In this document: positions 1-36,024 of the stretch, piece after piece
How the letters are laid out: every line of letters begins with the position of its first letter
Position numbering within the stretch: position 1 is the stretch's first letter
Origin: a virus
Taxonomy: Duplodnaviria > Heunggongvirae > Uroviricota > Caudoviricetes
Virus record (IMG/VR): IMGVR_UViG_2778261396_000003
Strand: one strand, 5' to 3'
Length of the DNA: 36,024 nucleotides
Translations under genes and position numbers: made by a program
The notes under the pieces: model-generated
The model's database searches: none
What the model saw: the letters and a program-made list of their open reading frames with translations, nothing else
What the model was told of the DNA's origin: nothing

Positions 1-1032
1 TCAAAAACTTGCTATTGATGTTGGTAGTGTTGCCAGCGGATTAAACCGTAATGCAGTTTCCAGGTGATCCGGTGCCAGATGTGCGTAACGCATAGTCATT
101 TTTATGTCGTGATGTCCGAGGATTTTTTGCAAAGCAAGGATATTTCCACCCGACATCATAAAATGCGCCGCAAACGTATGGCGCAGAACGTGTGTCAGTT
201 GACCGCGAGGGAGCACGATAGACGTTTTTTCCATCACGGATAAAAATTGAAAATAGCAGTCTGTGAAGAAATTGAACCCATCAAGCGCCATGATCTCTTC
301 GTAAAGCTCTTTACTGATAGGGATGCTTCTGTTTTTCTTCCCCTTCGTTCTTACAAAGGTAATTCGGTATTTGGTCACCTGTGAGCGGGTAAGATTTACG
401 GCTTCACGCCAGCGTGCGCCTGTGCTTAAGCATATCTTAACTACCAGTGCCAGAATTGGGTCCTGACGTTTGCAATCAGCCAGCAATTCAACAATCTGCT
501 CATGGGTAAGCCATGCCATCTCTTTTTCTGCGATGGTGAATTTTCGCATGTTCTCCAGTGGGTTCGGATACGACCATTCGCCCAGACGGGATAGTTCGCT
601 AAAAACACTACTTAGATAGCTTTGCTCCAGGTTAATGGTGACCGGGCTTGCTCCTTTCTTCCATTTCTCGCTGAAGTAGATCTCGCCTGTCAGGCGTTTA
701 TCTCGATAGTGGGCAAACATTTTAGAGGTGAGATCGGTTGCAAGAGGATTGCCCAGAGCGTCAACCATCAACAGCAATTTGTCATAGACATGCTGCCCAG
801 CTGTCAGAGATTTACCATGTAGTTTGAACCATAGCTCAACCACGTCTTTCAGTGTTCGACGATCCACTGATTCACCCAGCCAGGGCTTTGCTTCGGTTTC
901 TTCCATCGTGTGGCGCTCAAAAGCCAGTGCTTCGCCTTTGGTAGCGAATTGTTTACGCACACGACGCCCACTTCGTCCGGCGGGGTAACATTCGCAAAGC
1001 CATTTCCCTGTGGTTAGTTTTCGTACTGCCAT
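1..1032 (-). CDS. int: Tyrosine integrase (phage integrase family), 343 aa
   Basis: C-terminal catalytic region HVLRHTFAAHF...ILALQKILGHHDIKMTMRYAHL (R/H-x-x-R...Y pattern); positioned at the prophage edge as in P2/186. Confidence 0.9.
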   Translation of the reverse strand: MAVRKLTTGKWLCECYPAGRSGRRVRKQFATKGEALAFERHTMEETEAKPWLGESVDRRTLKDVVELWFKLHGKSLTAGQHVYDKLLLMVDALGNPLATDLTSKMFAHYRDKRLTGEIYFSEKWKKGASPVTINLEQSYLSSVFSELSRLGEWSYPNPLENMRKFTIAEKEMAWLTHEQIVELLADCKRQDPILALVVKICLSTGARWREAVNLTRSQVTKYRITFVRTKGKKNRSIPISKELYEEIMALDGFNFFTDCYFQFLSVMEKTSIVLPRGQLTHVLRHTFAAHFMMSGGNILALQKILGHHDIKMTMRYAHLAPDHLETALRFNPLATLPTSIASF

Positions 1033-1114: not shown

Positions 1115-2791
1115 CTAAGCAACATGTAGTTCATCGTTGGCGGAAGTGGCTGCTTTGCGCTCCTGCTCAATAGCTAGAGACTCTCTATATTCTTTCGCCT
1201 CTGCAAACATTGTCCAGTGGGCGTTGATGTTCATGTCTTCAATAACTGATTTGATTTCTTTTAAATTTACGTTAAAAAACTCTTTTCGTGAGTTAATTTT
1301 ATTGACCTGCTTTTCGTTGAAAACTTTATGCAGATGGTTTTCTAATGATGGTGCATCATCACTATAAATCATCGCATGAACATCGAACGAAAAAGGAACA
1401 CTAGCATCTCCGAGTTCACGAACACGATCAAGTGGTTCAAGGCGGCGTGTCATTCCAATTTTATATACATCTTCGCCAAATGAACCAATATTACTAATGA
1501 TATAGACGTGGCCTGATCTGGTTTGTTGAGCCATAGAAATAGCTCGTTGATTTTTAGCTTCAGCTTCTTCATATTTTAACTGTAGTTCAGCTATTTTTTG
1601 CTCTAAAGCTAAGCGTTGTTCTTCATTTGCAAGCATAAGTTCTTTCGTTGCTTTATTTATAGCTTGCTGAATAGCTTTTTCTTCTTTTTCAGCTTCTTTT
1701 ATCGCTTTTTCATATTCTCTACGAGCTCTTTCCTCTTCACGAAGCTGTTCTTTAATCCTTCTTTGCTCTTCTTTTTCTTCGAGCATAATTTCATTAACTG
1801 CTACACCCCATTTTAGCTCGTTGAGTCTTGCCTGAAGATAGATGTCACTTATTTTTGCGGACCTAAAGGCAGAGCCATTGTAATTTACTAGTTGAAATGC
1901 ATCTTTTATTTCTTGGGAAAGTTTTCCAAAATTGTTGTGTTTGACTTTTGATAAAATACTGTCAACTCTTCCATTGAAGGCATCCAAAACAAAGTTTATG
2001 GCAGTATTACGCCTCTTTTGCTCAACATAATCACACGAAGCAGCTTTATTAGTTTTTATTAATGATTTGGTTAACTCTCTGGCTTTTTGTAATTCCTTGC
2101 CTGCATCTGTAAATTCATAATTTTCTGCCAGCTCATCAAGTACACTACGGTTAGGGATGATCCATTCATCACCATAACCTTCAATTTTATTTTTCATTGA
2201 TTTTGCAACTGCTTCATATTTTTCTGCAAACTCTTTAGCTTCATATGCTGAACCAGCAATCTCCTTTGCTCTTTCTTCTGCATCAGAAATAATTTTTACT
2301 GCATTGTCATTAGCATTTGAGATTAGCTCATTTGCTTTATTATTAGCATTATCAAGACGTTCTTTGGCTTTCAGGCGTGCATCGCGAGCGTCTTTGGTGA
2401 TTGCTATAGCTTCGCTATTAGCGTTGCTTATTGTCATCTGAGCTTGATAATTTGCTTCGTTTACTGTTTTAGCCGCCTTAATTTGGGCTTCATCTATTTT
2501 TTGCTTGGCTATTGAGTCCGCATTTTTTATCTTATTCTCTGCATCCATTACTGCGCTGTGCAATTCTTCGTATTGCCACAATGGTGCTGCTCGCCCTTCA
2601 AGCTCTGATAATTCTCGTACGGTCTGTGCTAGTTTTTCTTGATTTTCAATCAGTTGGTTAGAAAGGGCTATGTTGTTAGCTGTCAGGTTATCTATAGCCG
2701 CTTTGTGTTTTTTACTTTGTTTAAATAATATTACAGCTAGAACAGGGGCGAGAAATGCTAATAAGAGTATAACGATGGCAAATGAATTCAT
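1115..2791 (-). CDS. Membrane-anchored coiled-coil protein with DUF4041-like middle region and C-terminal T5orf172/GIY-YIG-like domain (558 aa); candidate prophage-encoded exclusion/defence protein
   Basis: N-terminal hydrophobic segment FAIVILLLAFLAPVLAVILF; long A/K/E/N-rich heptad-like region; C-terminal HVYIISNIGSFGEDVYKIGMTRRLEPLDRVRELG...PFSFDVHAMIYS resembles GIY-YIG/T5orf172. Sampled GC ~33% against ~50% in core genes; only 20 bp from cI stop, same strand. Confidence 0.7.
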   Translation of the reverse strand: MNSFAIVILLLAFLAPVLAVILFKQSKKHKAAIDNLTANNIALSNQLIENQEKLAQTVRELSELEGRAAPLWQYEELHSAVMDAENKIKNADSIAKQKIDEAQIKAAKTVNEANYQAQMTISNANSEAIAITKDARDARLKAKERLDNANNKANELISNANDNAVKIISDAEERAKEIAGSAYEAKEFAEKYEAVAKSMKNKIEGYGDEWIIPNRSVLDELAENYEFTDAGKELQKARELTKSLIKTNKAASCDYVEQKRRNTAINFVLDAFNGRVDSILSKVKHNNFGKLSQEIKDAFQLVNYNGSAFRSAKISDIYLQARLNELKWGVAVNEIMLEEKEEQRRIKEQLREEERARREYEKAIKEAEKEEKAIQQAINKATKELMLANEEQRLALEQKIAELQLKYEEAEAKNQRAISMAQQTRSGHVYIISNIGSFGEDVYKIGMTRRLEPLDRVRELGDASVPFSFDVHAMIYSDDAPSLENHLHKVFNEKQVNKINSRKEFFNVNLKEIKSVIEDMNINAHWTMFAEAKEYRESLAIEQERKAATSANDELHVA

Positions 2792-2811: not shown

Positions 2812-3408
2812 TTAATTCGAGACTATTGTACTTCTTATACAAGCAACCACTTCAATATCAGAAAATGCACATTCAAAGCTATTCTCTGCTGTTGTAATTT
2901 TAATCATTCCTTTAGGAAGCCTTGTGATTTTTCGAATGGAATAGGTTCCGTCGATATTGATTAACCAGTTTCCATCAAGTACTTCAGAAAATTTTTGATC
3001 ACAAATGTATGTGACGAGTCCATCCTGAACAACAATTGGTGATGAAAGGTTTGCAGGAAGAAATGATGAATCGAAGACATATGAACCGTCTTCAATCATT
3101 TTGCCAGCGGCAAGGCGAAACTTAACAAGCTCTTCTGTAGCTGCTGTCAGCGAGCTTTGCTTAAGGCCTTGTCCGGTAGTTAACCATTTGAGGGAGGTTC
3201 CTGTTTCAAGAGCACATTGGATTATCCAGTCAGCAGGAAATGTATCCCGCAAATACCTGTTCGCTAGTGTGCTTTTTGATACTTCCAAGTGATCAGCTAA
3301 AGCCTGTCGTGTCGTAAAGCCATAGGCTTCGACTAATCGCTCAATCGCAGCCTTACCACCTTTATTGGGATTTATTTTGATCTCACTTGGGTACTTTGAT
3401 GTTGACAT
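2812..3408 (-). CDS. cI: Phage 186-type CI immunity repressor (198 aa)
   Basis: HTH-like segment EAYGFTTRQALADHLEVSKSTLANRY, then CALETG..LKWLTTGQG and DGNWLINIDG motifs recalled from 186 CI; divergent from the early operon. Confidence 0.8.
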   Translation of the reverse strand: MSTSKYPSEIKINPNKGGKAAIERLVEAYGFTTRQALADHLEVSKSTLANRYLRDTFPADWIIQCALETGTSLKWLTTGQGLKQSSLTAATEELVKFRLAAGKMIEDGSYVFDSSFLPANLSSPIVVQDGLVTYICDQKFSEVLDGNWLINIDGTYSIRKITRLPKGMIKITTAENSFECAFSDIEVVACIRSTIVSN

Positions 3409-9409: not shown

Positions 9410-9612
9410 GAAACGTTGCTGGCGTCTGAACTTGCTTCTGGCGTCAGCAAGGTTGAACAACGAGCTGTGCGAGGCGTTAGCTCTGTGGTGCATGTCTATG
9501 CCGCATGAGATCGCATGATCGTTTGAGGATCGTTTTTGCTAAGGCCTGCCAGAACTGGCGGGCTTTTGCGTAGATCATGCAGGTGCATGAAAACCACTAC
9601 ATAAAGCGGGCA

Positions 9613-9631
9613 GGCGTGGCGGGGATACGAG
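9613..9631. other. Candidate cos (cohesive-end) site GGCGTGGCGGGGATACGAG
   Basis: First 13 nt match the 186 cohesive end as I recall it (GGCGTGGCGGGGAAAGCAT); located between the replication region and Q, where P2/186 cos lies. Confidence 0.4.
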
Positions 9632-9749
9632 CGCGCGCTGTGCTGTGTGGTATAGGCCTTAATTTAGTATGATTCAATAGTGTCGGGAGCTTTGCGCTGA
9701 TCAGTCCTAAGTTATATGATAAGAAAAATGCATAAAAAAGGTTCGGTTC

Positions 9750-10724
9750 ATGGGGTTAGGATTAAAAGACGCTATTGTGCATACCGCTGCGTTTCATCAA
9801 AAGGAAACTAATGAATTGCAATTGCCAAACAATCATTGGCATCCTGGTTTTATCACTGTCTTAGCAGCTTACGTGAATCATCACAAAATTACCGAAGATA
9901 ACTGTGTTTTGTCATGCCCTGGCTATATGCGAGCTATCAATTTACATGGTGCTTTATGGGGAGAGGATCAGTATCAACAGGAACGTGTAAATGTTGGAAG
10001 AAATTACAGTTTGGTTACAGCATTAACCAATGTTGAAGCTGTTGACGTTGCCACTGGTAGTATTAACAGTTGTGTAAGGCAGTTAACATTCCCTGATCGT
10101 GATCCGAGAGATTGTCCCAAGGGACTTACAGATCTAACCCATGTTATAGGTGAGCTTCACGATAACGTTTGGTCGCATGGAAAATCAACGGGTTTTTCTT
10201 TTGCACAACGTTCGGCTGTACCCCACACTCAAAAAAAAGAGCACTATTTAGAATTTTCTTTGGCGGACTGTGGGTTAGGATTTCTCCGAGAATTGCGGCG
10301 AGCTGGTATACCCGGAATTGAGACTCACCAGGATGCGATCGCATGGTGTATTCAAGAGGGACATTCATCTAAGCATGCTGATTTGCAGGATGATTGGGCA
10401 CAGCAGCTTCCCCAGGACTTTATTGGGGGTAGTGTGTTTGGCCACGGGGTTTCGGTCAAAGAAAAAGATAATAATCATCAAGGGCTTGGGTTGTATCACT
10501 TGATGAAATTGATAAAAACATATAACGGGGAATTGCAACTGGCTTCAGGAAATGTATGCTTAGAAGCAATAGGTGATGAAGTGAGCTATACTGAATTACG
10601 TACTGAATGGCCGGGTGTAGCAATTTCTTGCCGTTTTAAGATTCATGAACTGGCAGTCGATAAAGATAGCGAAGAAAATGACCCTCAGCTTATGGAAATA
10701 ATGCGGGCGTTAGGAGGAGAGTAA
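9750..10724 (+). CDS. GHKL/Bergerat-fold ATPase (histidine-kinase-like ATP-binding domain) with ~130-aa unique N-terminal region, 324 aa
   Basis: N-box-like ELHDNVWSH, G1-like DCGLG, G2-like GLGLYHL, read from the translation; sampled GC ~37%; stop overlaps next start (TAATG). Confidence 0.75.
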   Translation: MGLGLKDAIVHTAAFHQKETNELQLPNNHWHPGFITVLAAYVNHHKITEDNCVLSCPGYMRAINLHGALWGEDQYQQERVNVGRNYSLVTALTNVEAVDVATGSINSCVRQLTFPDRDPRDCPKGLTDLTHVIGELHDNVWSHGKSTGFSFAQRSAVPHTQKKEHYLEFSLADCGLGFLRELRRAGIPGIETHQDAIAWCIQEGHSSKHADLQDDWAQQLPQDFIGGSVFGHGVSVKEKDNNHQGLGLYHLMKLIKTYNGELQLASGNVCLEAIGDEVSYTELRTEWPGVAISCRFKIHELAVDKDSEENDPQLMEIMRALGGE

Positions 10725-11062
10725 TGAACAAAATCGCATACAAGTTACCCGAGGGTGACCTGGCTTCGCGCAATCAGGCTATCCCCCAACGACACAAGAT
10801 TGAAGGGTTCATTAAAGAAGGGTATACCGTAGATTTAGATCTGAGCGGTGTTTATTCAATTTCAGAATCATACTCTGATGAAATCTTTGGTGTTTTGGTA
10901 GTGAAATTCGGTGTAACCAAAGTTTTGAGTCAAGTTAAGGTTCGCAATGCACCCCCTTCAATTTTAAAAAGTATTGCAAAAGTGATCCAACGCCGTAGTA
11001 ATGAAGTAGCATCAAAAAAGGTTCATTCCGTTGGATTTGATGGTTTATACGCCGTTTGTTAA
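10724..11062 (+). CDS. Small protein (112 aa), tentatively STAS-like (DUF4325-type)
   Basis: Translationally coupled to the upstream ATPase; size and predicted alternation of hydrophobic strands consistent with a STAS-type fold, but the domain call is from memory only. Confidence 0.65.
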   Translation: MNKIAYKLPEGDLASRNQAIPQRHKIEGFIKEGYTVDLDLSGVYSISESYSDEIFGVLVVKFGVTKVLSQVKVRNAPPSILKSIAKVIQRRSNEVASKKVHSVGFDGLYAVC

Positions 11063-11079
11063 TATATGGTTAGTTAGAT

Positions 11080-11110
11080 AAAAGGCGCTGAGATTAGCGC
11101 CTTTTCTTTT
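11080..11110. terminator. Bidirectional rho-independent terminator hairpin AAAAGGCGCT-GAGATT-AGCGCCTTTT between the accessory pair and convergent Q
   Basis: GC stem flanked by A-run on one side and T-run on the other. Confidence 0.6.
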
Positions 11111-12149
11111 ATTCCTGAACACCTAAAACATAGTCATCAAAACGTATTACTTCTGCACCCACCCATTCGTTTAGTTCATGTAGTCGCTTCTGTAGTGGCA
11201 TCAATTCATTGCGAACAAATACAAGACTAGCCTTCTCCACATCCCCAAAACCCCCAACATTATTTGGCATAATCCCCATCATCTGTGGCGGAACGCGATG
11301 TGCTGCCATCATGTCATCGCGGCTGACATTTTTGATATTCAGAAACTCATCCTTCGCCGCAACTTCTGACAAAGGGATGATCTGAAGGCCGTCCTTTTTG
11401 CCGTTAGGCGAGTACATAAACAGGTTGCGGAAGTTGCCTGGACCTTTGGCGCTTTTCATCGCGTTGCGGAGATTGTTCACATCCTCCTGATTCTGCGCGG
11501 CGTCGGTCATGTACATGATGAAGCCTGCATGGCTGCCGTTGATGTAATACTTACGGCGGAACAGCGTGGCGGACTCATTGAGCAGGGCTGACGGAATGGC
11601 AGAAAGATAGCCGGGCAGGCCGTAGATCTCCTGGTTAATGTCCGGTTCCATCAGATGAAAGATGCTGCCTTTCGTGAACTGATACGGCTGTGTTGTCATA
11701 CCGTATTGCACAAACCAGTAGGTATCCAGGTCTAACCCGCGTCGTGTGTATTTCGCCAAGGCAGGTTCAAGGGCGATAACTTCACCGAAGCGGTTCGTGC
11801 GTTTCTCCAGGTAGGCGTTACCAAATACCAGATAGTCTTGCACAAAACGCGAAAAAGCCTGCTGGCTGAGCAGCGGATGAGGGATATAGGTACTGGTCAG
11901 AATGTTGCACTTTACTGCAATCGGGGAACTGTGATGCACGGCGGCGCGGAAGGTGCGCGCCAGTCCGTCAAAGCTGACGGGCGGCTCATACCAACGGTCC
12001 ATCTGTATGCATTCCACATAGTCCAGTAATTCTCGGCGGTCCAGAACAGGAACGGGATCGCCGAAGCTGAATGCTTCGGCTGAAGTCTGGCTTTTATACT
12101 GGATGTGATTCATCGCCGCAGCGCGGTTTTTCTTACTCTTTCCCATCAA
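11109..12149 (-). CDS. Q: Portal protein (P2 gpQ-like), 346 aa
   Basis: Size, position and orientation upstream of terminase large subunit as in P2. Confidence 0.85.
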   Translation of the reverse strand: MMGKSKKNRAAAMNHIQYKSQTSAEAFSFGDPVPVLDRRELLDYVECIQMDRWYEPPVSFDGLARTFRAAVHHSSPIAVKCNILTSTYIPHPLLSQQAFSRFVQDYLVFGNAYLEKRTNRFGEVIALEPALAKYTRRGLDLDTYWFVQYGMTTQPYQFTKGSIFHLMEPDINQEIYGLPGYLSAIPSALLNESATLFRRKYYINGSHAGFIMYMTDAAQNQEDVNNLRNAMKSAKGPGNFRNLFMYSPNGKKDGLQIIPLSEVAAKDEFLNIKNVSRDDMMAAHRVPPQMMGIMPNNVGGFGDVEKASLVFVRNELMPLQKRLHELNEWVGAEVIRFDDYVLGVQE

Positions 12150-13912
12150 AAAATCTCCACAATATTGCTTGTATTGGCGGACTCGCCCTGCAGCGGTTCA
12201 TTAAACAGTGCGTGCATCGTTGCCCAGGCCAGATCGGCGTGGCTGGCTTCTTCGCTGCGGCTGGCTTCATAGGTCGGGCGGTTGCCACTGGCGGTGGTGG
12301 CGCGACGGATTGCCATGAATGACTGCGCAATGTCGGTGTGCCCGGCGTCAAACTCCAGACGGCGGTGGCTGATAATGTCGTATGCCTTGAGTACCAGGGC
12401 GTTTTTAACGTTGGGGTTGTAGACAAACTCCCGGACGGCAGGAAAAAACGCTTTCACGTTCTCGTAAACCCCGTGACCAACGCCGGTTGAGTCGATGCCG
12501 ATATAGGTCACGTTGTACTGTTCGGTCAGTTTTTTGATGGCGTCAGCCTGGGCGCGAAAGTCCATCCCGCGCCACTGGTGACGCTCAAGAATGCGGAACT
12601 TGCCGCCCGGCACGGCTGGCGGTGCCACCACCACGCATCCGGCACTGTCGCCGTTCTGCGTACCTTTCGCCGGGTCATAACCGATCCACACTTCGCGCCA
12701 GCCAAATGGGCGCAGCGCCAGTGCATGAAAGTCGGTCCAGACTTCCCAACTGTCCACCATGCACGCCTGCAGCTCGCTGAGCGGAAACACGGACGCGAGA
12801 TCGTCCACAAACTCGCACATCAGCAGGTTCTGGTATTCGTCCGGGCTGTACTCCATGCGTAGCTGGTCGAGGTCGAACAGGTTACAGCCGCCGCGCACCG
12901 CATCTTCCACGGTGACTATCTGGCGGTATTGCCCGTCTGCGCACAGCAGGCCGGGGGCCAGATTGTTGTGGGACAGGTCGATGTCCACCTTATCGGCTTT
13001 GTTGCGCCCACGGTTAAACAGCGCACCGGACCAGAACGGATAAGCACTGTGTGTCAGGCTGGATGGCGTGGAAAAATAGGTTTGTCGCCATTTTTTGTGA
13101 ATAGCCATACCGGAAGCCACTTTGCGCAGCTCCTGGAATTTCGGTATCCAGAAATATTCATCCAGATACAGGTTGCCGTGATAACTCTGGGCCGTGCGGG
13201 CATTAGTGCCGAGGAAGTAAAGCGTGGCCCCGTTAGGAAGCACCATCGGATCGCCTTTCAGCTCCACCTCCACTTCTTTGGCGAAGTCGATGATGTACTG
13301 CTTAAAGACGTGAGCCTGTGCCTTACTGGCAGAAAGGAAAATCTGGTTACGTCCGGTAAGCAGGGCGTCAATCAGGGCTTCACGGGCAAAGTAAAAGGTC
13401 GCGCCGATCTGGCGTGACTTCAGCAGGTTGCGGATGCGGTTGGTTTTTCCGGCTTCCCACCAGTGGCGCTGGTAGTTGAACATGGAGGAATGGAAAATTT
13501 CTTCCAGCTTCTCAATCTGTTCATCGGTGAAGACATTTTTTTCCGGTTGACGGCGCGGGCCTTTGTTGCGGTTGGCGACGTTAGGGTTTAAGTCGGCTTC
13601 GTTGCCGCCATTGTTAAACTTGCCGATCCGCGCGTGGCGCTCCGACTGGCGCGCCAGCAGGTCAATCTCTTTGAAATCTTTCCCTTCTTTGTGCTCCTTC
13701 ATAATGAGCTGGCAGTAGCGGGCGGCGGTGGTGAGCTGCATCTGATCCAGCGGCCCATAGTCACCCCACTTGTCGCGTTTCTTCCAGCTGTGAACAGTTG
13801 CAACTTTCTCGCCCAGCATTTCAGCAATGCGGGCTACGCGGTATCCCTGAAAGTACAGCAGCATGGCCTGCCGACGGGGATCGAGATCTGCGGGTGTCAG
13901 TGTGGTGTTCAT
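12146..13912 (-). CDS. P: Terminase large subunit/ATPase (P2 gpP-like), 588 aa
   Basis: 588 aa, leftward, overlapping Q by 4 nt, divergent from O; P2 Q-P arrangement. Confidence 0.85.
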   Translation of the reverse strand: MNTTLTPADLDPRRQAMLLYFQGYRVARIAEMLGEKVATVHSWKKRDKWGDYGPLDQMQLTTAARYCQLIMKEHKEGKDFKEIDLLARQSERHARIGKFNNGGNEADLNPNVANRNKGPRRQPEKNVFTDEQIEKLEEIFHSSMFNYQRHWWEAGKTNRIRNLLKSRQIGATFYFAREALIDALLTGRNQIFLSASKAQAHVFKQYIIDFAKEVEVELKGDPMVLPNGATLYFLGTNARTAQSYHGNLYLDEYFWIPKFQELRKVASGMAIHKKWRQTYFSTPSSLTHSAYPFWSGALFNRGRNKADKVDIDLSHNNLAPGLLCADGQYRQIVTVEDAVRGGCNLFDLDQLRMEYSPDEYQNLLMCEFVDDLASVFPLSELQACMVDSWEVWTDFHALALRPFGWREVWIGYDPAKGTQNGDSAGCVVVAPPAVPGGKFRILERHQWRGMDFRAQADAIKKLTEQYNVTYIGIDSTGVGHGVYENVKAFFPAVREFVYNPNVKNALVLKAYDIISHRRLEFDAGHTDIAQSFMAIRRATTASGNRPTYEASRSEEASHADLAWATMHALFNEPLQGESANTSNIVEIF

Positions 13913-13957
13913 GACACAAACCTACAGCCTTGAATGAAGGCTTTCCCCGCCTGCGGT

Positions 13958-13975
13958 TTGTGTGGTTGTCGGTAC
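13958..13975. promoter_or_regulatory. Ogr-type late-promoter activator dyad TGT-N12-ACA in the divergent P/O intergenic region
   Basis: TGTGTGGTTGTCGGTACA, about 80-97 bp upstream of O start; P2 late promoters carry this dyad near -55. Confidence 0.5.
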
Positions 13976-14054
13976 AAATACCGCGCATTGTTTCACTGCC
14001 CCCATCACCGCAACCATAAGGCTCCAGTAAGTTTTTTCTAACGGAGCACGGCTC

Positions 14055-19866: not shown

Positions 19867-19884
19867 TGTATCAGCACTGATACA
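19867..19884. promoter_or_regulatory. Ogr-type late-promoter dyad TGT-N12-ACA upstream of V
   Basis: TGTATCAGCACTGATACA, itself an 8-2-8 palindrome, ~50-65 bp upstream of V start. Confidence 0.55.
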
Positions 19885-21760: not shown

Positions 21761-22358
21761 TCTGCTGCCACCGGGTTCAACACCACTGGAGCGCCGACTG
21801 GCGCACACCTGCAGCGGGATTTCTGATCTGCAGGTGCCACTGCGTGACTTGTGGAATCCGGCGACCTGTCCGGTCAGTTTCCTGCCTTATCTCGCCTGGG
21901 CGTTCTCTGTGGATCGCTGGGACGAGAGCTGGACGGAAAGCGTCAAGCGCCAGGTGGTGAAGGATGCTTTTTATATTCATCAGCATAAAGGGACCACCAG
22001 TGCCGTGCGGCGGGTGGTGGAGCCGTTCGGCTTTCTGATCCGCATTATTGAGTGGTGGCAGACCGGAGAGGCACCGGGCACGTTTCGCCTGGATATCGGC
22101 GTGCAGGACCAGGGCATCACTGAAGATACCTATCTGGAACTTGAGCGACTGATAAGCGATGCCAAACCATGTAGCCGCCACATGATCGGCATGTCCATCA
22201 ATCTGCAGACCAGCGGCCCGCATTGGGTGGGAGCCGCCAGCTATCTTGGCGAAGAAATCACGATCTATCCGTATATCAACGAAACGATTATTTCCGGTGG
22301 CACCGCGCATGAAGGCGGGGCGGTCCATGTTATTGACACAATGAGAGTGAATCCATGA
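21753..22358 (+). CDS. I: Baseplate/tail protein (P2 gpI-like), 201 aa
   Basis: Position and size. Confidence 0.85.
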   Translation: MNSLLPPGSTPLERRLAHTCSGISDLQVPLRDLWNPATCPVSFLPYLAWAFSVDRWDESWTESVKRQVVKDAFYIHQHKGTTSAVRRVVEPFGFLIRIIEWWQTGEAPGTFRLDIGVQDQGITEDTYLELERLISDAKPCSRHMIGMSINLQTSGPHWVGAASYLGEEITIYPYINETIISGGTAHEGGAVHVIDTMRVNP

Positions 22359-23854
22359 GCACAAAATTTTATACCCTGCTGACGGATATTGGCGCGGCGA
22401 AACTTGCCAGCGCCGCCGCGCTCGGTGTGCCGCTAAAAATTACCCATATGGCGGTGGGCGATGGCGGCGGAGTATTGCCAACGCCGGACGCAAAGCAGAC
22501 GGCACTGGTAAATGAGAAACGCCGGGCTGCGCTGAATATGCTTTATATCGACCCGCAGAATAGCAGCCAGATTATTGCTGAACAGGTGATCCCTGAAAAC
22601 GAGGGCGGTTGGTGGATACGTGAAGTGGGCCTGTTTGATGAGTCCGGGGCATTGATTGCCGTGGGCAACTGCCCGGAAAGCTATAAGCCGCAACTGGCTG
22701 AAGGCAGCGGGCGCACCCAGACCGTGCGCATGGTGCTGATTACCAGCAGTACGGACAATATCACCCTGAAAATCGACCCTGCTGTAGTGCTGGCAACCCG
22801 CAAGTATGTGGATGACAAGGTACTGGAGCTGAAGGTGTACGTGGATGACCTGATGGCAAAACATCTTGCTGCACAGGACCCACATTCACAGTACGCGCCA
22901 AAAGCCAGCCCGACATTTACCGGAACCCCCAAAGCGCCAACGCCAGCGGCGGGGAATAATACCACGCAGGTTGCGACCACTGCGTTTGTACAGGCGGCAC
23001 TGACGGCCCTTATTAATGGTGCGCCAGCCACGCTGGACACGCTGAAAGAAATAGCCGCAGCCATTAACAATGATCCGAATTTCAGTACCACCATTAACAA
23101 TGCGCTGGCACTAAAAGCACCGTTGTCGAGTCCGGCACTCACCGGAACGCCAACAGCCCCCACGGCGGCGCAGTCGGTCAACAATACACAGATTGCCACC
23201 ACGGCTTTTGTGAAATCAGCAATTGCGGCAATGGTGGGTTCTGCCCCTGCGGCACTGGATACACTGAATGAACTGGCGGCGGCGCTGGGGAATGACCCTA
23301 ACTTTTCAACAACAGTGCTTAATGCACTGGCAGGCAAACAACCGCTGGACAATACGCTTACTAATTTGAGTGGAAAGGATGTGGCTGGTCTTCTCGCATA
23401 CCTTGGTTTGGGAGAAGGCTCTGCATTACCTGTTGGTGTCCCTGTTCCGTGGCCTTCAGCTACGCCGCCAACAGGCTGGCTGAAATGCAATGGCGCTGCC
23501 TTTGATAAGGTTAAATATCCCCGTCTTGCTACAGCATATCCATCAGGGAAACTACCTGATCTCCGCGGTGAGTTTATTCGTGGCTGGGATGATGGGCGCG
23601 GCATTGATACAGGGCGTGCTTTATTGAGTATTCAGAGTGATGAAGTCAGAAAGCTCGCATTAAAATACTGGGGACCAGCTTCAATCGGTTCACCATCAAA
23701 AACATTTGCACTCAGCGAAAGTGCCGGTGGCGGGTTGTACACGGATGGAATAAGTCAGGCAAGCGGTGGGATTATCAACGCTTTTCAGCTCCCCGGCGGG
23801 AGTGAAACCCGTCCACGAAATATTGCATTTAACTATATCGTGAGGGCTGCATAA
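22355..23854 (+). CDS. H: Tail fibre protein (P2 gpH-like), 499 aa; constant N-terminal part plus variable C-terminus inside the invertible segment (current orientation)
   Basis: Position, size, and internally duplicated NDPNFSTT-containing units; the 26-bp crossover site falls at codons ~346-354 (LGLGEG). Confidence 0.85.
   Translation: MSTKFYTLLTDIGAAKLASAAALGVPLKITHMAVGDGGGVLPTPDAKQTALVNEKRRAALNMLYIDPQNSSQIIAEQVIPENEGGWWIREVGLFDESGALIAVGNCPESYKPQLAEGSGRTQTVRMVLITSSTDNITLKIDPAVVLATRKYVDDKVLELKVYVDDLMAKHLAAQDPHSQYAPKASPTFTGTPKAPTPAAGNNTTQVATTAFVQAALTALINGAPATLDTLKEIAAAINNDPNFSTTINNALALKAPLSSPALTGTPTAPTAAQSVNNTQIATTAFVKSAIAAMVGSAPAALDTLNELAAALGNDPNFSTTVLNALAGKQPLDNTLTNLSGKDVAGLLAYLGLGEGSALPVGVPVPWPSATPPTGWLKCNGAAFDKVKYPRLATAYPSGKLPDLRGEFIRGWDDGRGIDTGRALLSIQSDEVRKLALKYWGPASIGSPSKTFALSESAGGGLYTDGISQASGGIINAFQLPGGSETRPRNIAFNYIVRAA
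22904..23347 (+). repeat. Tandem internal duplication in H (two ~74-codon units, aa 184-257 and 258-331)
   Basis: ..TGTPKAPTPAAGNNTTQVATTAFV..GAPATLDTLKEIAAAINNDPNFSTT..ALALKAPL vs ..TGTPTAPTAAQSVNNTQIATTAFV..SAPAALDTLNELAAALGNDPNFSTT..ALAGKQPL; diverged at nucleotide level. Confidence 0.6.
23391..23416. other. Left 26-bp crossover site of tail-fibre invertible segment (gix/hix-like): TTCTCGCATACCTTGGTTTGGGAGAA
   Basis: Matches the reverse complement of the site at 25233-25258 at 21/26 positions, including an identical 14-bp arm TTGGTTTGGGAGAA. Confidence 0.6.
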
Positions 23855-24456
23855 TGGATAACGCCGTATTAAATAGCGAGCTTATTGCCACGAAGGCGGG
23901 GAATATTACCGTCTATAACTATGATGGTGAAACTCGGGAATATATTTCCACATCAAATGAATATCTTGCCATTGGTGTCGGTATCCCTGCATATTCCTGT
24001 TTAGATGCGCCAGTTACACATAAAGCTGGTTATGCTATCTGCCGCTCAGCAGATTTTAACTCATGGGAATATGTGCCAGACCATCGCGGTGAAATCGTCT
24101 ATAGCACAGAAACAGGAGAATCAAAAGAAATCACAGCTCCGGGTGATTACCCTGAAAATACAACCACTATCGCCCCTTTATCTCCATACGATAAATGGGA
24201 TGGTGAGAAATGGGTGACCGATACTGAGGCACAGCATAGCGCCGCAGTCGAAGCGGCAGAAGCACAGCGCCAGTCACTGATTGATGCTGCTATGGCTTCC
24301 ATCAGTCTGATTCAACTGAAATTGCAGGCCGGACGGAAACTGACGCAGGCAGAAACAACCCGACTTAACGCCGTGCTGGATTACACTGACGCGGTGACGG
24401 CAACAGATACCAGCACCGCGCCGGATGTCATCTGGCCTGAACTGCCGGAGGCGTAG
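23854..24456 (+). CDS. G: Tail fibre assembly chaperone (P2 gpG-like), 200 aa, inside invertible segment
   Basis: Immediately follows H; convergent with a second assembly gene. Confidence 0.75.
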   Translation: MDNAVLNSELIATKAGNITVYNYDGETREYISTSNEYLAIGVGIPAYSCLDAPVTHKAGYAICRSADFNSWEYVPDHRGEIVYSTETGESKEITAPGDYPENTTTIAPLSPYDKWDGEKWVTDTEAQHSAAVEAAEAQRQSLIDAAMASISLIQLKLQAGRKLTQAETTRLNAVLDYTDAVTATDTSTAPDVIWPELPEA

Positions 24457-24868
24457 GCCATTCAATATCTGGAGCACTGGAAATATCAACCATTTCCAGT
24501 GCGTCCAGATAATCAAGCCATGAATTATATTGCGCCAGTTCCTCACCTTTCAGACGACCAATAGCAGCCTTTCCTGGCCACTGCTTACTGTTAATATATT
24601 CATTAACTCGATTTATGAGTGCCTGTTTTTTTCGTTCCGCTTCTGACAGTTGTTCTTCATGAGTTAGCGGCGGTACGTCATCCCATGCAGGATAGCCATC
24701 ATCACCCGCAACTCTCACCTTCCCTGGAGGTGAGGACAGGTACTTAATAAATATATCCTCATCAACTTCAACTCCATTATGAGGCCATAACCCAGACTCC
24801 TTATACTGACTTTCCAGAGTAAATGGGTAAAACATATTAGTTTTAGCATCGTAAAGATATTTACTCAT
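24428..24868 (-). CDS. Alternative tail fibre assembly chaperone (G'), 146 aa
   Basis: ATG at 24868 (minus strand) preceded by AGGAAG; convergent and overlapping G by 29 nt; follows the alternative H C-terminal exon. Confidence 0.7.
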   Translation of the reverse strand: MSKYLYDAKTNMFYPFTLESQYKESGLWPHNGVEVDEDIFIKYLSSPPGKVRVAGDDGYPAWDDVPPLTHEEQLSEAERKKQALINRVNEYINSKQWPGKAAIGRLKGEELAQYNSWLDYLDALEMVDISSAPDIEWPTPPAVQAR

Positions 24869-24869
24869 T

Positions 24870-25245
24870 TTATCTTCCTGTAGCAAACCAGCGGCAACCA
24901 GCGACAGTTGGAACATTGAAGGATGGATTTCCTTTATCAAGAGATCCCAGGTTCTCTGCTATGACATTTGAGTTAGTCAATTTATAGAATTGCCATACTG
25001 ACATTTTCCCTGCCACAGGAGCCTGGTCATGTTCATTAATAGAAATGACGGCTGTCGGAAATGGGATAGGAAAATTAATCAAAACTTCATTTGTTGTGGC
25101 CCCAGTTAGCCCCCATTGTTCAATATAACCATCCGGGCTTCGCCTCCATCCCGTCGTTGTATCTCCCCCACACTCCCACGCTGACATATCAGGAATTTGG
25201 TTTTGCCCGTTACCCACATCCCGTTTTGCCGCTTCTCCCAAACCA
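24870..25245 (-). other. Promoter-less alternative C-terminal tail-fibre exon (Hv'), fused in frame to H after inversion
   Basis: Minus-strand ORF with no plausible start of its own; its translation crosses the right crossover site with the same ..GLGE.. junction as H. Confidence 0.6.
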
Positions 25246-25258
25246 ACGTTTATGAAAA
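25233..25258. other. Right 26-bp crossover site of invertible segment: TTCTCCCAAACCAACGTTTATGAAAA
   Basis: Resembles hixL/gix as recalled (TTCTTGAAAACCAAGGTTTTTGATAA); inverted relative to 23391-23416; ~55 bp upstream of invertase. Confidence 0.6.
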
Positions 25259-25313
25259 TGCAGAGATAACGGCTAACTGGCATCATCCCCGGTTTTTATT
25301 CAGGGGATTGATC

Positions 25314-25880
25314 ATGCTTATTGGCTATGTACGCGTGTCAACAAATGACCAGAACACCGATTTGCAACGTAATGCACTGAACTGCGCGGGATGTGAGCGG
25401 ATTTTTGAGGACAAAATCAGTGGCACTAAGTCCGACAGACCGGGACTGAAAAAACTGCTCAGGACATTATCGGCAGGTGACACTCTGGTTGTCTGGAAGC
25501 TGGACAGGTTGGGGCGCAGTATGCGGCATCTCGTTACGCTGATAGAAGAGCTGCGCCAGCGTGGCGTGAATTTCCGAAGCCTGACTGACAGTATTGATAC
25601 CAGTACCCCAATGGGCCGTTTCTTTTTTCATGTCATGGGGGCCCTGGCTGAAATGGAGCGCGAACTGATAGTTGAACGTACCAGGGCGGGGCTGGCTGCA
25701 GCTCGCGCCAAAGGCAGAGTAGGTGGACGCCGTCCTAAGTTGATCACCGAACAGTGGGCACAGATTGGACGTTTACTCGAGGCCGGAGAATCAAGACAGC
25801 GTATTGCACTGATTTTTGATGTAGGTGTTTCCACAATTTATAGAAAATTTCCGGCAAATAAGAGCAATGAATCCCCCTGA
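25314..25880 (+). CDS. Serine DNA invertase (Hin/Gin/Pin/Cin family), 188 aa
   Basis: N-terminal catalytic motif MLIGYVRVSTNDQNTDLQ and C-terminal HTH (GESRQRIALIFDVGVSTIYR); internal ATG chosen over ORF-track start 25197. Confidence 0.9.
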   Translation: MLIGYVRVSTNDQNTDLQRNALNCAGCERIFEDKISGTKSDRPGLKKLLRTLSAGDTLVVWKLDRLGRSMRHLVTLIEELRQRGVNFRSLTDSIDTSTPMGRFFFHVMGALAEMERELIVERTRAGLAAARAKGRVGGRRPKLITEQWAQIGRLLEAGESRQRIALIFDVGVSTIYRKFPANKSNESP

Positions 25881-25928
25881 ATCAGCATTATGTTGATTAT
25901 CCCTGCAAGCAGACAAATACCGTCATTT

Positions 25929-25946
25929 TGTATGAATAACGGTACA
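25929..25946. promoter_or_regulatory. Ogr-type late-promoter dyad TGT-N12-ACA upstream of FI
   Basis: TGTATGAATAACGGTACA, ~77-94 bp upstream of FI start. Confidence 0.5.
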
Positions 25947-26022
25947 ACTGCGCTTAGCTGTTTGTCAGGCACAATCACTTCAACATAGGGCGAAGCCTAA
26001 TCCAATCAGGAGGTTCGCCACT

Positions 26023-27195
26023 ATGGCTCAGGATTACCACCACGGGGTGCGCGTTGTTGAAGTCAACGAAGGCACCCGATCCATTACCACGGTGAGCACC
26101 GCCATCGTGGGTATGGTCTGCACGGGCGATGATGCCGATGCAAAAATGTTTCCTCTTAATAAACCCGTGCTGATCACTGATGTGCTGACTGCCAGCGGTA
26201 AAGCGGGTGAGTCCGGTACTCTGGCCCGTTCGCTGGATGCCATCGCTGACCAGGCAAAACCCGTGACCGTTGTTGTGCGTGTGCCGCAGGGTGAAACGGA
26301 AGACGAAACCACGACCAATATCATCGGCGCAGTGACTGCTGAAGGTAAAAAAACAGGTATGAAAGCCCTGTTATCTGCCCAGTCACAGCTCGGCGTTAAA
26401 CCGCGCATTCTCGGCGTGCCAGGCCACGATAACAAAGCCGTTGCGACTGAGTTGCTGAGCGTGGCGCAAAGCCTGCGTGGGTTTGCTTACCTGTCAGCGT
26501 ATGGCTGCAAGACGGTACAGGAGGCGATCACTTACCGTGAAAACTTCAGCCAGCGCGAAGGGATGCTGATCTGGCCTGACTTTACGGGCTGGGACACGGT
26601 GCTGAATGCCGAAGCAACGGCATATGCCACCGCCCGTGCGCTCGGTCTGCGCGCCAAAATTGATGAGCAGACCGGATGGCACAAAAGCCTGTCCAACGTG
26701 GGCGTGAACGGTGTCACCGGAATTTCTGCTGATGTGTTCTGGGATCTGCAGGATCCGGCAACCGATGCAGGTCTGCTTAACCAGAACGACGTTACCACGC
26801 TTATCCGCAAAGACGGTTTCCGCTTCTGGGGTTCCCGCTGTCTGAGCGATGACCCGCTCTTTGCCTTCGAAAACTACACCCGCACGGCGCAGGTACTGAT
26901 GGACACGATGGCAGAAGCGCACATGTGGGCAGTGGACAAACCGCTGAATCCGTCGCTGGCCCGCGACATTATCGAAGGTATCCGCGCCAAAATGCGCAGC
27001 CTGGTCAGTCAGGGGTATCTCATTGGTGGTGATTGCTGGCTGGACGAGTCGGTGAACGACAAAGACACTCTGAAAGCCGGGAAACTCACTATCGACTACG
27101 ACTACACGCCAGTGCCGCCACTTGAAAACCTGATGCTGCGTCAGCGCATCACCGATCAGTACCTGGTGAATTTCGCCAGCCAGGTCAGCGCGTAA
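26023..27195 (+). CDS. FI: Contractile tail sheath protein (P2 gpFI-like), 390 aa
   Basis: Position and size. Confidence 0.9.
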
Positions 27196-33255: not shown

Positions 33256-33292
33256 CCCATCAACCTTGAACCGAAATGGCGGGGTTGATGGG
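33256..33292. terminator. Perfect 10-bp inverted repeat CCCATCAACC...GGTTGATGGG (17-nt loop) in the ogr/ybjL convergent intergenic region; possible bidirectional terminator or junction element
   Basis: Read directly; preceded by an A-run. Loop is long for a classical terminator. Confidence 0.35.
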
Positions 33293-33404
33293 CTCCACAA
33301 AATGGGGACATCAAAGAAAAGCAGTGGCACTAATTAAGACTGATGCCCTGCGGAAAAGTTCTGCGGTTGTGCAAAAAAATTTCATTTTCAGGGCAACTTC
33401 AGTT

Positions 33405-35090
33405 TTATCCTAATCCTGGCCATACCATGACGATGATTGTCCCTGCCAGCGTCAGCAGGACGTTGGCGATTGCATAGGTGCCCGCATAGCCCAGCGCCGG
33501 GATGTTACTGCGAGCTGTATCACTGATGATCTCCATTGCCGGCGCGCAGGTACGTGCGCCCATCATTGCGCCGAACAACAGTGCGCGGTTCATTCGCAAT
33601 ACATAAGCACCGAACAAGAAACAGATAACCACGGGCACCAGACTGACAATCAATCCGGCAATCAACATCTGACCGCCAATCGCGCCCAGGCCGTTATTAA
33701 TACCGCTACCGGCGCTCAGACCAACGCCTGCCATAAACACCATCAAGCCGAACTCTTTCACCATGCTTAATGCACCCTGCGGAATGTAACCGAAGGTCGG
33801 GTGGTTAGCACGCATAAAGCCCAGCATAATTCCGGCGAATAACAACCCGGCAGCGTTCCCCATGCCGAAACTGAATGTGCTGAACTGGAAGGTGATCATC
33901 CCGATCATCAGCCCAATAACAAAGAAGGCGCAGAATGCCAGCAGGTCAGTGACCTGGCTGTGAATCGAGATAAAGCCGATGCGATCGGCGATGGTTTTTA
34001 CGCGGCGGGCATCGCCGCTGACTTGTAAAACGTCACCTTTGTTAAGCACGACGTTGTCATCTATCGGCATCTCAATCTGGCTACGAATGACGCGGTTAAG
34101 GAAGCAACCGTGATCGGTCAACTTCAGTTGTGCGAGACGTTTACCTACAGCGTTATGGTTTTTAACGACCACTTCTTCAGTGACGATACGCATGTCGAGA
34201 AGGTCACGATCGAAAACTTCTTTACCGTTACGGAAGCTGGGATCGAGTCGGGCATGGGCGTCGGGATAGCCTACCAACGCTATTTCATCGCCCATTTGTA
34301 GCACGGCATCACCGTCTGGATTTGCCAGAATCCCGTTACGTCGAATACGTTCAATGTAGCAGCCGGTTTGTCGATAAATACCCAGTTCACGCAGATTTTT
34401 GCCGTCGGTCCAGGCCACCAGTTCCGGGCCGACGCGATAGGCGCGGATCACCGGTAAATAAACCTTACGGTTGGCATCAGTGTCCAGGCCACGTTCGCGG
34501 GCGATTTGCTGGGCGCTGGTCTGTAAGTCCTGATGCTGCAATTTCGGCAAGTAACGCGCACCAACAATCAAACTCACCAGACCGATTAAATAGGTTAAGG
34601 CATACCCGAGGCTCAGATTATCCAGTGCCAGTGAGAGCTGCCTGCTTTCCATGCCGGAATGACGCAGTGTATCGCCAGCACCGACCAGAACCGGTGTCGA
34701 CGTCATAGAGCCTGCTAACATACCGGCCGTCAGGCCAATATCCCAGCCAAACAGCTTACCTAACCCTAAGGCGATCACCAGCGCACTGCCAACCATCACC
34801 AGTGCTAACATTAGGTAATTTTTCCCATCGCGAAAAAAAATGGAAAAAAAGTTCGGTCCGGCTTCGACCCCGACGCAGAAAATAAACAGCATAAAGCCAA
34901 GATTAAGCGCATCGGTGTTAATGCTGAAATGTTGTTGGCCTAATAACAGCGATACGACTAAAACGCCAATGGAATTACCCAGTTGGATCGAACCAAGTCG
35001 TAACTTTCCGAGACATAGCCCAAGCGCGAGGACCACAAATAATAACAGAATGTAATTCCCATTTAACAATTCGGCGACGTTTATATTCAC
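33405..35090 (-). CDS. ybjL: Putative transport protein YbjL (membrane transporter with duplicated TM domains and central TrkA-C-like region), 561 aa
   Basis: [29 protein letters not shown]... matches E. coli YbjL as recalled; host context with ybjM and grxA. Confidence 0.8.
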
Positions 35091-35359
35091 GGAGGCTAAC
35101 TTCTTGTTTACTAGTAAGCTGTTGAAAGAAATGGTAATTTACGATAATGTTTTTTACCAGAATTCAGGGCGCAGATTCATTCAGCGCACCTAAACGATAG
35201 TAAAGTAACAATATATTTTACTAGTGTAATCACATTAGGTATCAACGGCTATATGAATTGCGTTGGCCTATATTAGCATGGAATGCGAAGCGGCTTTATC
35301 TTACTGAACGCCACACTGGCGAAAAATGTGTTCGATAGACGCAGTGTCAGGAGGAACGA

Positions 35360-35737
35360 GTGAAACATAAACAACGTTGGGCGGGGGCAATCTGCTGTTT
35401 TGTCCTCTTCATTGTGGTGTGCCTTTTTCTGGCGACGCACATGAAAGGCGCTTTTCGGGCTGCCGGGCATCCTGAAATCGGCTTGCTATTTTTCATTCTT
35501 CCTGGAGCAGTCGCCAGCTTCTTTTCACAGCGTAGAGAAGTCCTGAAACCTCTGTTTGGCGCAATGCTGGCGGCACCCTGTTCGATGCTCATTATGCGGC
35601 TGTTTTTTTCACCGACGCGCTCATTCTGGCAAGAGCTGGCATGGTTATTAAGTGCGGTGTTCTGGTGTGCGCTGGGGGCACTGTGTTTCTTATTTATCAG
35701 TAGTTTGTTTAAACCACAGCACAGAAAAAATCAGTAA
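35360..35737 (+). CDS. ybjM: Inner membrane protein YbjM, 125 aa
   Basis: Small polytopic membrane protein between ybjL and grxA as in E. coli. Confidence 0.7.
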   Translation: MKHKQRWAGAICCFVLFIVVCLFLATHMKGAFRAAGHPEIGLLFFILPGAVASFFSQRREVLKPLFGAMLAAPCSMLIMRLFFSPTRSFWQELAWLLSAVFWCALGALCFLFISSLFKPQHRKNQ

Positions 35738-35758
35738 AGCCCTCAACGCGAGGGCTTG
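35738..35758. terminator. Hairpin AAGCCCTCAACGCGAGGGCTT between convergent ybjM and grxA
   Basis: GC-rich 7-bp stem GCCCTCG/CGAGGGC with short loop directly after ybjM stop. Confidence 0.45.
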
Positions 35759-35766
35759 TCAGACGA

Positions 35767-36024
35767 TCAGGCGTCCAGATTTTCTTTCACCCATGCAGCA
35801 AAATCGGTATAGCCGCCGATATGTTGCTGATCGACAAAAATCTGCGGCACGGTTTCTACGGGTTTACCTGCCTTTTGTTGTAGATCTTCTTTAGTGATCC
35901 CTTCCGCACGAATATCTACATAGTGATACTGAAAATCATCGTGTTCATTGCTCAATTTCTCAGCCAGATCTTTTGCACGCACACAGTAAGGGCAACCCGG
36001 ACGACCAAAAATAACGGTTTGCAT
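35767..36024 (-). CDS. grxA: Glutaredoxin 1, 85 aa
   Basis: CPYC active site (GRPGCPYCVRAK) and overall match to E. coli GrxA; start codon is the last 3 nt of the window. Confidence 0.9.
   Translation of the reverse strand: MQTVIFGRPGCPYCVRAKDLAEKLSNEHDDFQYHYVDIRAEGITKEDLQQKAGKPVETVPQIFVDQQHIGGYTDFAAWVKENLDA

Follow-up and report, generated by a model that had tools for sequence, protein, structure and literature searches.

The phage DNA analysed here, the virus record IMGVR_UViG_2778261396_000003 of IMG/VR, is a stretch of 36,024 nt (the whole of it is called the window below, and all positions are window coordinates). It carries an invertible module that exchanges the distal part of its tail-fibre gene H. 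Two inverted 26-bp crossover sites enclose two opposed cassettes, each composed of a fibre-tip exon and a chaperone gene, and a serine DNA invertase gene lies just outside the right site. Both orientations of the segment occur in nature. The two-state host-range switch is real and probably functional, and it is very likely that the module acts as an active, Fis- and enhancer-dependent system which would mount two receptor-binding tips, each served by its own chaperone, on a constant P2-type shaft expressed from a likely late promoter (P_V) upstream of gene V.

The left crossover site (23391-23416, plus strand, TTCTCGCATACCTTGGTTTGGGAGAA) spans codons 346-354 of H, which encode LLAYLGLGE, and the right site (25233-25258, minus strand, reverse complement TTTTCATAAACGTTGGTTTGGGAGAA) stands at the 5' end of a minus-strand open reading frame (ORF, 24870-25286) reading ...NVGLGEAAK. 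These sites are of the pix/gix type: in each, a 2-bp core is flanked by two imperfect 12-bp half-sites (12-2-12), and as an inverted pair they are equal at 21 of 26 positions and were ranked as the top inverted repeat by a repeat finder (27 nt, 81%). The original prediction, made from the letters of the sequence and a list of its ORFs, had proposed this inverted pair with its 21/26 match, the position of the left site inside H at the LGLGEG junction and that of the right site at the start of a minus-strand frame with the same junction motif, and direct reading together with the repeat finder bore it out on each of these points. The identical arm that it described also exists, with an exact length of 15 bp (23403-23417 / 25232-25246) and not 14. 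Each site has TT (AA on the opposite strand) at its positions 13-14, which fall at 23403-23404 in the left site and at 25245-25246 in the right one, and the cores are thus compatible for inversion.

The 14-mer TTGGTTTGGGAGAA is present in exactly two copies in the window, one per strand. Exact inverted 14-mers are, however, common in themselves, since about 12 distinct exact inverted 14/15-mer pairs were counted in these 36 kb and a search allowing three mismatches gave the chance level, so that repeat length was dropped as evidence. The significance of the sites derives instead from their identity with the e14 sites, at which inversion has been demonstrated, from their reading-frame positions and from the breakpoints of natural inversions. 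A scan with a symmetric half-site consensus revealed exactly two sites in the window, none other reaching a score of at least 15 of the 20 specified positions, and the lack of a third site in the window argues for a two-state switch and not a shufflon. When the same scan was applied to the e14 element of E. coli K-12, the right site was found to be identical (26/26) to the site adjoining pinE and the left one to differ by 3 nt from the distal e14 site; in Mu, it highlighted the gix sites at equivalent positions. Relatives were collected as the 80 IMG/VR contigs encoding a close relative of the invertase, and in about 60 of them the proximal site is placed at a constant -81 from the invertase ATG.

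As sequenced, H (22355-23854) encodes a protein of 499 residues with a fibre domain of the P2 type at its N-terminus and a tail-collar domain at its C-terminus. Its constant part, Hc (residues 1-354, 22355-23416, plus strand), remains outside the invertible segment; it contains the Pfam Phage_tail_fib N-terminal domain (E 7e-65) and is 54% identical to residues 1-329 of P2 H. The variable exon currently fused to it, Hv (23417-23854, plus strand), belongs to the Pfam Collar family (E 4e-14), shares 55% identity with e14 StfE and is followed by the gene of a TfaE-type chaperone of 200 residues (23854-24456, plus strand; Pfam Caudo_TAP, E 1e-32; 93% identical to e14 TfaE). On the minus strand, the alternative exon Hv' (24870-25232; Pfam Gp53-like_C, E 2e-12), which is currently OFF and whose mechanical ORF extends to 25286, precedes the gene of an alternative chaperone Tfa' of 146 residues (24428-24868, minus strand; Pfam Caudo_TAP, E 4e-34). 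The second, convergent assembly-chaperone gene of the original prediction is thus present, and the Pfam search placed one Caudo_TAP gene after each alternative tip. Tfa' shares 67% identity with e14 TfaP over its C-terminal half, and it is 33% identical to Mu U'. In-frame stops after fusion would have spoken against the prediction; when the segment 23403-25246 was inverted in silico, residues 1-354 of H were joined in frame to the minus-strand exon, giving an H' protein of 474 residues with zero internal stops. The two convergent chaperone genes share a 29-bp 3' overlap (24428-24456), and the same 29 bp are found in e14 (tfaP/tfaE) and in the P2-like locus of enteropathogenic E. coli (EPEC) described below; the shared chaperone C-terminal motif APD(V/I)xWP or antisense effects are possible meanings of this overlap.

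The inverted form predicted in this way exists in a sequenced bacterium. E. coli FDAARGOS_1248 has a prophage that matches the region 22355-26100 at 100% identity. The window does not come from this strain, since its remaining parts are 89-99% identical and its right end is host flank. The junction of the segment flipped in silico also has a 100% match in this strain, 33 kb from the unflipped one. FDAARGOS_1248 carries two tandem P2-like prophages between ybjL and rcdA (NZ_CP069542.1 3542902-3609569; L001 and L002 in our set). Outside the segment they are 99.75-99.99% identical, and exactly 1847 bp are in opposite orientation with a single mismatch. One mismatch in a segment that lies in opposite orientations in tandem copies of about 99.8% identity indicates recent flipping. 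The window, too, has this segment inverted relative to copy 2 of FDAARGOS_1248, the breakpoints falling at 23400-23417 and 25232-25246, and the predicted fusion of 474 residues is identical over its whole length (474/474) to WP_251301748.1, annotated in copy 2. Induction of FDAARGOS_1248 would release both fibre types at once.

Both orientations were also found among the IMG/VR relatives, in which an inverted distal site lies 1.6-2.05 kb upstream of the proximal one: 7 have the TfaE-type cassette ON, and 17 have it OFF. Two pairs of contigs, L008/L019 and L066/L076, each represent the same phage with the segment alone inverted. In these two pairs and in the comparison of the window with L001, the invertible segment is 99.6-99.9% similar as compared with 96-98% in at least one flank, which hints that the segment may travel between phages as a cassette. 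Some relatives are organized differently: three crossover sites are present in L025, L056 and L067, and the constant part of H lies downstream of the invertase gene, on the minus strand, in L024, L025 and L056. The layouts of these four contigs imply multi-state, shufflon-like rearrangements which could include the invertase gene itself. Rearrangements of this kind have been reported for one EPEC P2-like prophage.

The invertase gene (25314-25880, plus strand) begins 55 bp beyond the right site and encodes a protein of 188 residues with the catalytic motif MLIGYVRVSTNDQ and Ser9 as nucleophile. Its assignment to the Gin/Hin/Cin/Pin family, already made in the original prediction together with its place just outside the right site, is in agreement with the Pfam matches (Resolvase, E 2e-53; HTH_7, E 1e-14) and with an ungapped match to the Gin structure PDB 3uj3 over residues 1-184 (E 5e-92). 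Its identity with Gin, Cin and PinE spans 74-86%; over 180 codons, the values are 86% for e14 PinE, 79% for P1 Cin and 76% for Mu Gin. All the catalytic residues are present: R7 and S9, the latter in YVRVST, and D64, R65 and R68 in KLDRLGRS. The basic residues of helix B are conserved as K46, K47 and R50 (PGLKKLLR), which would correspond to Hin K47, R48 and K51 with a one-residue N-terminal offset. In an alignment with 1hcr, Q150, R153 and L154 correspond to Hin Q151, R154 and L155. These positions are those at which residues unique to the Fis/enhancer-dependent invertases are found in Hin, namely K47, K/R48 and K/R51 in helix B and Q151, R154 and L155 in helix 1 of the DNA-binding domain (PMC3798978).

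The search for a Fis-dependent enhancer inside the invertase gene, suggested in the original prediction, highlighted a candidate recombinational enhancer at 25336-25398 (plus strand). It is composed of two 15-bp Fis-core candidates, TGTCAACAAATGACC at 25336-25350 and GCGCGGGATGTGAGC at 25384-25398 (nt 23-37 and 71-85 of the gene), which are exactly 48 bp apart from centre to centre. They are the best conserved Fis-like 15-mers of the window gene, pinE, gin and cin, and their place in the gene does not change from one to another; the first of them departs from the preferred sequence at its initial base. A 48-bp spacing rule for Fis sites was reportedly set out by Johnson et al. in 1987. An initial register, GTGTCAACAAATGAC, with a spacing of 49 bp was replaced by this one, conserved in gin, cin and pinE. 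The candidate cores flank the AT-rich ATTTG...TAATG, and in the Hin enhancer ATTTA and TAATG sit between the two Fis sites (PMC3798978). Among 74 distinct invertase genes, the synonymous codon entropy was lower over codons 7-33 than over the rest of the gene (0.51 vs 0.76 bits, one-sided Mann-Whitney p = 0.006), which is at most suggestive of a constraint over the candidate enhancer.

Concerning expression, a TGT-N12-ACA motif upstream of gene V (19867-19884, plus strand), found by pattern search, is the likely Ogr-dependent late promoter P_V. By analogy with what is known of P2 and with its annotation, P_V would drive V-W-J-I-H-tfa and hence whichever cassette is joined to H. A second motif upstream of FI (25929-25946, plus strand), which matches the annotated activator site of P2 pF, is the likely late promoter P_F and marks the downstream boundary of the module. 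The same pattern search detected no Ogr-type TGT-N12-ACA between the P_V motif and 25929, so that the minus-strand cassette has no late promoter of its own, and a simple sigma-70 scan, its 6 matches being at chance level (4.7 in shuffled sequences), supported no promoter for this cassette or for the invertase gene. These results are in agreement with the minus-strand ORF being promoter-less, as predicted. Over the whole window, 13 TGT-N12-ACA motifs were counted as compared with 9.3 expected, a total close to chance; those at the positions expected for P2 late promoters are found at 13901-13976, in the O/P divergent region, and at 19867-19884 and 25929-25946.

The 55-bp spacer in front of the invertase gene contains TGGCATCAT (25278-25286, plus strand), which was not called by the sigma-70 scan, is invariant in the relatives, e14 and EPEC and has TGGCATGAT as its counterpart in Mu. 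It is a candidate extended -10 element for transcription of the invertase gene, with a -35 region that would abut the right site, so that invertase bound there could repress its own gene. A terminator-like hairpin considered at 25275-25294, before the invertase ATG, was rejected (folding z-score of -0.75, not significant), and the conserved element at this place is TGGCATCAT.

Put together, these elements suggest the following mechanism. Dimers of the invertase would bind both inverted 26-bp sites while host Fis would bind the enhancer within the first ~90 bp of the invertase gene, and dimers, sites and Fis-bound enhancer would assemble into an invertasome on supercoiled DNA. Ser9 would then cut at the central TT/AA of each site, one half of the tetramer would turn by 180 degrees and the ends would be rejoined, leaving about 1.84 kb inverted (23403-25246). 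In the sequenced orientation, late transcription from P_V would yield H(1-354) fused to Hv (collar-type tip, 499 residues) and the TfaE-type chaperone, and in the flipped one H(1-354) fused to Hv' (gp53-like tip, 474 residues) and the 146-residue chaperone; the cassette facing away would remain silent, having no late promoter. A population of lysogens would in this manner give two types of virions, which should differ in receptor specificity.

The closest known system is the P segment of e14, the cryptic prophage of E. coli K-12, reportedly described with its invertase PinE by Plasterk and van de Putte in 1985. Both share the gene order tip, tfa, tfa (minus strand), tip (minus strand), invertase, and the 29-bp convergent tfa overlap; to the agreement of the sites (26/26 proximal, 3 nt off distal) are added the identities of TfaE (93%), StfE (55%) and PinE (86%). 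Inversion in e14 has been established by sequencing and quantitative PCR at the repeat TTGGTTTGGGAGAAGG (Kirigo et al. 2025, PMC12529663) and is also reported in PMC4272514; the arm shared by the two sites of the window, TTGGTTTGGGAGAAG, is the repeat at which e14 inverts (PMC12529663). However, e14 is a defective lambdoid element with a truncated fibre gene, whereas the module of the window sits on a P2-type H N-terminus; moreover, Hv' has no detectable similarity to StfP, and Tfa' resembles TfaP in its C-terminal half only. A second close case is the P2-like prophage of EPEC E2348/69 (NC_011601.1 2977580-2979467), the inversion of which was observed by whole-genome sequencing with 93 +/- 4% in the forward orientation (Goldberg et al. 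2014, PMC4272514). Its repeat is nearly identical to the window arm, being printed there with one G fewer, probably a typographical error. This locus shares with the window the gene order, the place beside the tail sheath gene and the core of the inverted repeat, with 82-86% nucleotide identity in Hv/tfa/tfa' and an invertase 80% identical at the protein level. Unlike the window, which keeps the whole of H, it has lost its upstream part: the left site adjoins an integrase pseudogene, and Hc is absent.

The G segment of Mu with Gin and the C segment of P1 with Cin have the same layout, with a constant fibre N-terminus outside, two opposed tip and chaperone cassettes inside and, just beyond the segment, an invertase whose gene holds the enhancer in its 5' end (a candidate in the window); their sites are also 12-2-12. 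Nevertheless, the half-sites of Mu (TTATCCAAAACC / TTCCTGTAAACC) differ from those of the window, and the segment is 1.84 kb long as compared with ~2.8 kb between the gix sites of a Mu relative (L003). The alignment with Mu S/S' and U/U' advised in the original prediction did not relate the two modules: the tips have no detectable similarity to Sv/Sv', Hv' included, and the chaperones are only 30-33% identical to U/U'. The Mu G / P1 C / e14 P architecture which it had recognized therefore holds as a layout, and its kinship is specifically with e14 P/PinE and not with Mu; judged by its sequence, the module is an e14-type P segment of the PinE type joined to a P2-type fibre shaft. Hin of Salmonella belongs to the same enzyme subfamily, with conserved Fis- and enhancer-contact residues. 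Hin inverts a promoter to switch flagellin genes, whereas the segment of the window swaps coding exons of one protein.

In the window, the genes are ordered V-W-J-I-H-G ... FI-FII-E-T-U-D-ogr (ORF map), collinear with annotated P2-like prophages and with the P2 RefSeq genome, where H is followed by G, the terminator of the V operon, fun(Z) on the minus strand, the pF activator site and FI. The opposed cassette pair and the invertase gene are bounded by the first chaperone gene on one side and the P_F motif on the other and fill the Z/fun interval, which follows G and precedes the pF promoter and FI. P2 itself has fun(Z) in this interval; its H is fixed and longer (669 residues), and its G is single. 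The P2 RefSeq annotation and a published survey of this hotspot confirm that the G-to-FI interval, named in the original prediction, is the variable Z/fun locus of P2; DNA invertases and tail-fibre swapping had already been noted there in P2-like phages (bioRxiv 10.1101/2024.10.15.618418).

Several points weigh against an active, Fis-dependent host-range switch in this phage. The evidence for inversion is comparative and comes from relatives, one of which is 100% identical over 22355-26100; inversion in the window's own lysogen would be expected by extension from them. The first Fis-core candidate begins with T where G is the preferred base. The synonymous-site comparison used phylogenetically related sequences, constraint at the 5' end of a gene frequently has other causes, and the entropy climbs steadily along the invertase gene with no dip confined to the enhancer. 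Finally, the change of host range is deduced only from the different families of the two tip domains (Collar vs Gp53-like_C).

The crossover repeat falls within codons for a conserved peptide motif, and the window has, as described above, about a dozen pairs of exact inverted 14-mers. Inversion could for these reasons be attributed to RecA-dependent recombination at a short inverted repeat born from the shared GLGE junction, the invertase being irrelevant. The identity is however just 15 bp, and efficient exchange by RecA requires a far greater length; both sites display the complete 26-bp gix/pix architecture with two half-sites. Conservation of the outer half-sites extends to non-coding DNA, at the fixed -81 distance from the invertase gene in about 60 relatives. 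As e14 genetics also contradict it, the probability of this explanation is next to negligible. It could also be argued that sites and invertase have been kept after inversion ceased, the phage being frozen with Hv ON and the differences in orientation among relatives being old. The window itself indeed displays one orientation only, and prophage remnants that carry an invertase are numerous, one of them being the truncated P2-like element of EPEC without Hc. Such a fossil is nonetheless very improbable: the invertase ORF is intact with all its catalytic residues, both sites are intact with matching cores, the OFF cassette is stop-free, and the tandem copies of FDAARGOS_1248, at ~99.8% identity and with one mismatch in the segment, are already opposite, which points to a recent flip. 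Even the truncated EPEC remnant and the cryptic e14 still invert experimentally (PMC4272514, PMC12529663).

A role serving the host could exist in addition to the switching of virion tips, inversion then setting which fibre-derived protein, produced at a low level, blocks the receptors of superinfecting phages. Receptor blocking against T2 has been reported for e14 StfE2 (PMC12529663), the Hv/Tfa cassette is homologous to e14 StfE/TfaE (55% / 93%), and e14 has the same crossover repeat. On the other hand, the fibre gene of the window belongs to an apparently complete P2-type late operon behind an Ogr-type motif, and neither the sigma-70 scan nor the Ogr-motif search detected a promoter for the orphan cassette; in this context, expression in the uninduced lysogen is unlikely. 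Moreover, a chimeric ORF peculiar to the truncated genes of e14 was involved in the effect reported there (PMC12529663), and this additional role is quite improbable. By the same analogy, there is a small chance that, besides setting virion host range, the switch acts as a recombinase-controlled superinfection barrier in which a low-level StfE-like fragment would mask outer-membrane receptors; intact P2-like prophages would then carry a phase-variable defence in the Z/fun defence hotspot.

The active two-state switch thus preferred is a known kind of system at a known position in a known phage group and adds no new biology, since homologous e14 and EPEC P2-like modules have been shown to invert and Z/fun invertases had already been noted. 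An identical copy is present in RefSeq without annotation as a switch, its parts being labelled separately by the Prokaryotic Genome Annotation Pipeline as 'recombinase family protein', 'gp53-like domain-containing protein' and two 'tail fiber assembly proteins'. The main value of the present analysis lies therefore in annotation, because a genome fixed in a single orientation conceals both the actual H' product and the second host range. To know that two receptor-binding tips are encoded and can be exchanged by inversion should be useful for phage typing, for host-range prediction and for the engineering of P2-like phages or tailocins.

The carrier of the module is apparently a complete P2-like prophage (Peduoviridae). 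The right end of the window (~33260-36024) is host chromosome, with ybjL (33405-35090, minus strand) and then the ybjM/grxA region, which places the integrated prophage beside ybjL as in FDAARGOS_1248. Between the integrase gene (1-1032, minus strand) and the CI repressor gene (2812-3408, minus strand), the int-CI cargo spot holds a gene (1115-2791, minus strand) for a protein of 558 residues matching the anti-phage system PD-Lambda-1 (PADLOC, E 2e-120; Pfam DUF4041 and T5orf172/MUG113), which is not found in the related FDAARGOS_1248 prophages. The old/tin hotspot (9480-11148), located between the replication and portal genes, contains ORFs 9750-10724 and 10724-11062 (plus strand). The former encodes 324 residues, for which no annotation was obtained, and is translationally coupled to the latter, which encodes a DUF4325 (STAS-like) protein of 112 residues; together they may form an uncharacterised two-gene cargo or defence pair. 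At the same hotspot, the FDAARGOS_1248 prophages hold DUF262/GmrSD genes instead.

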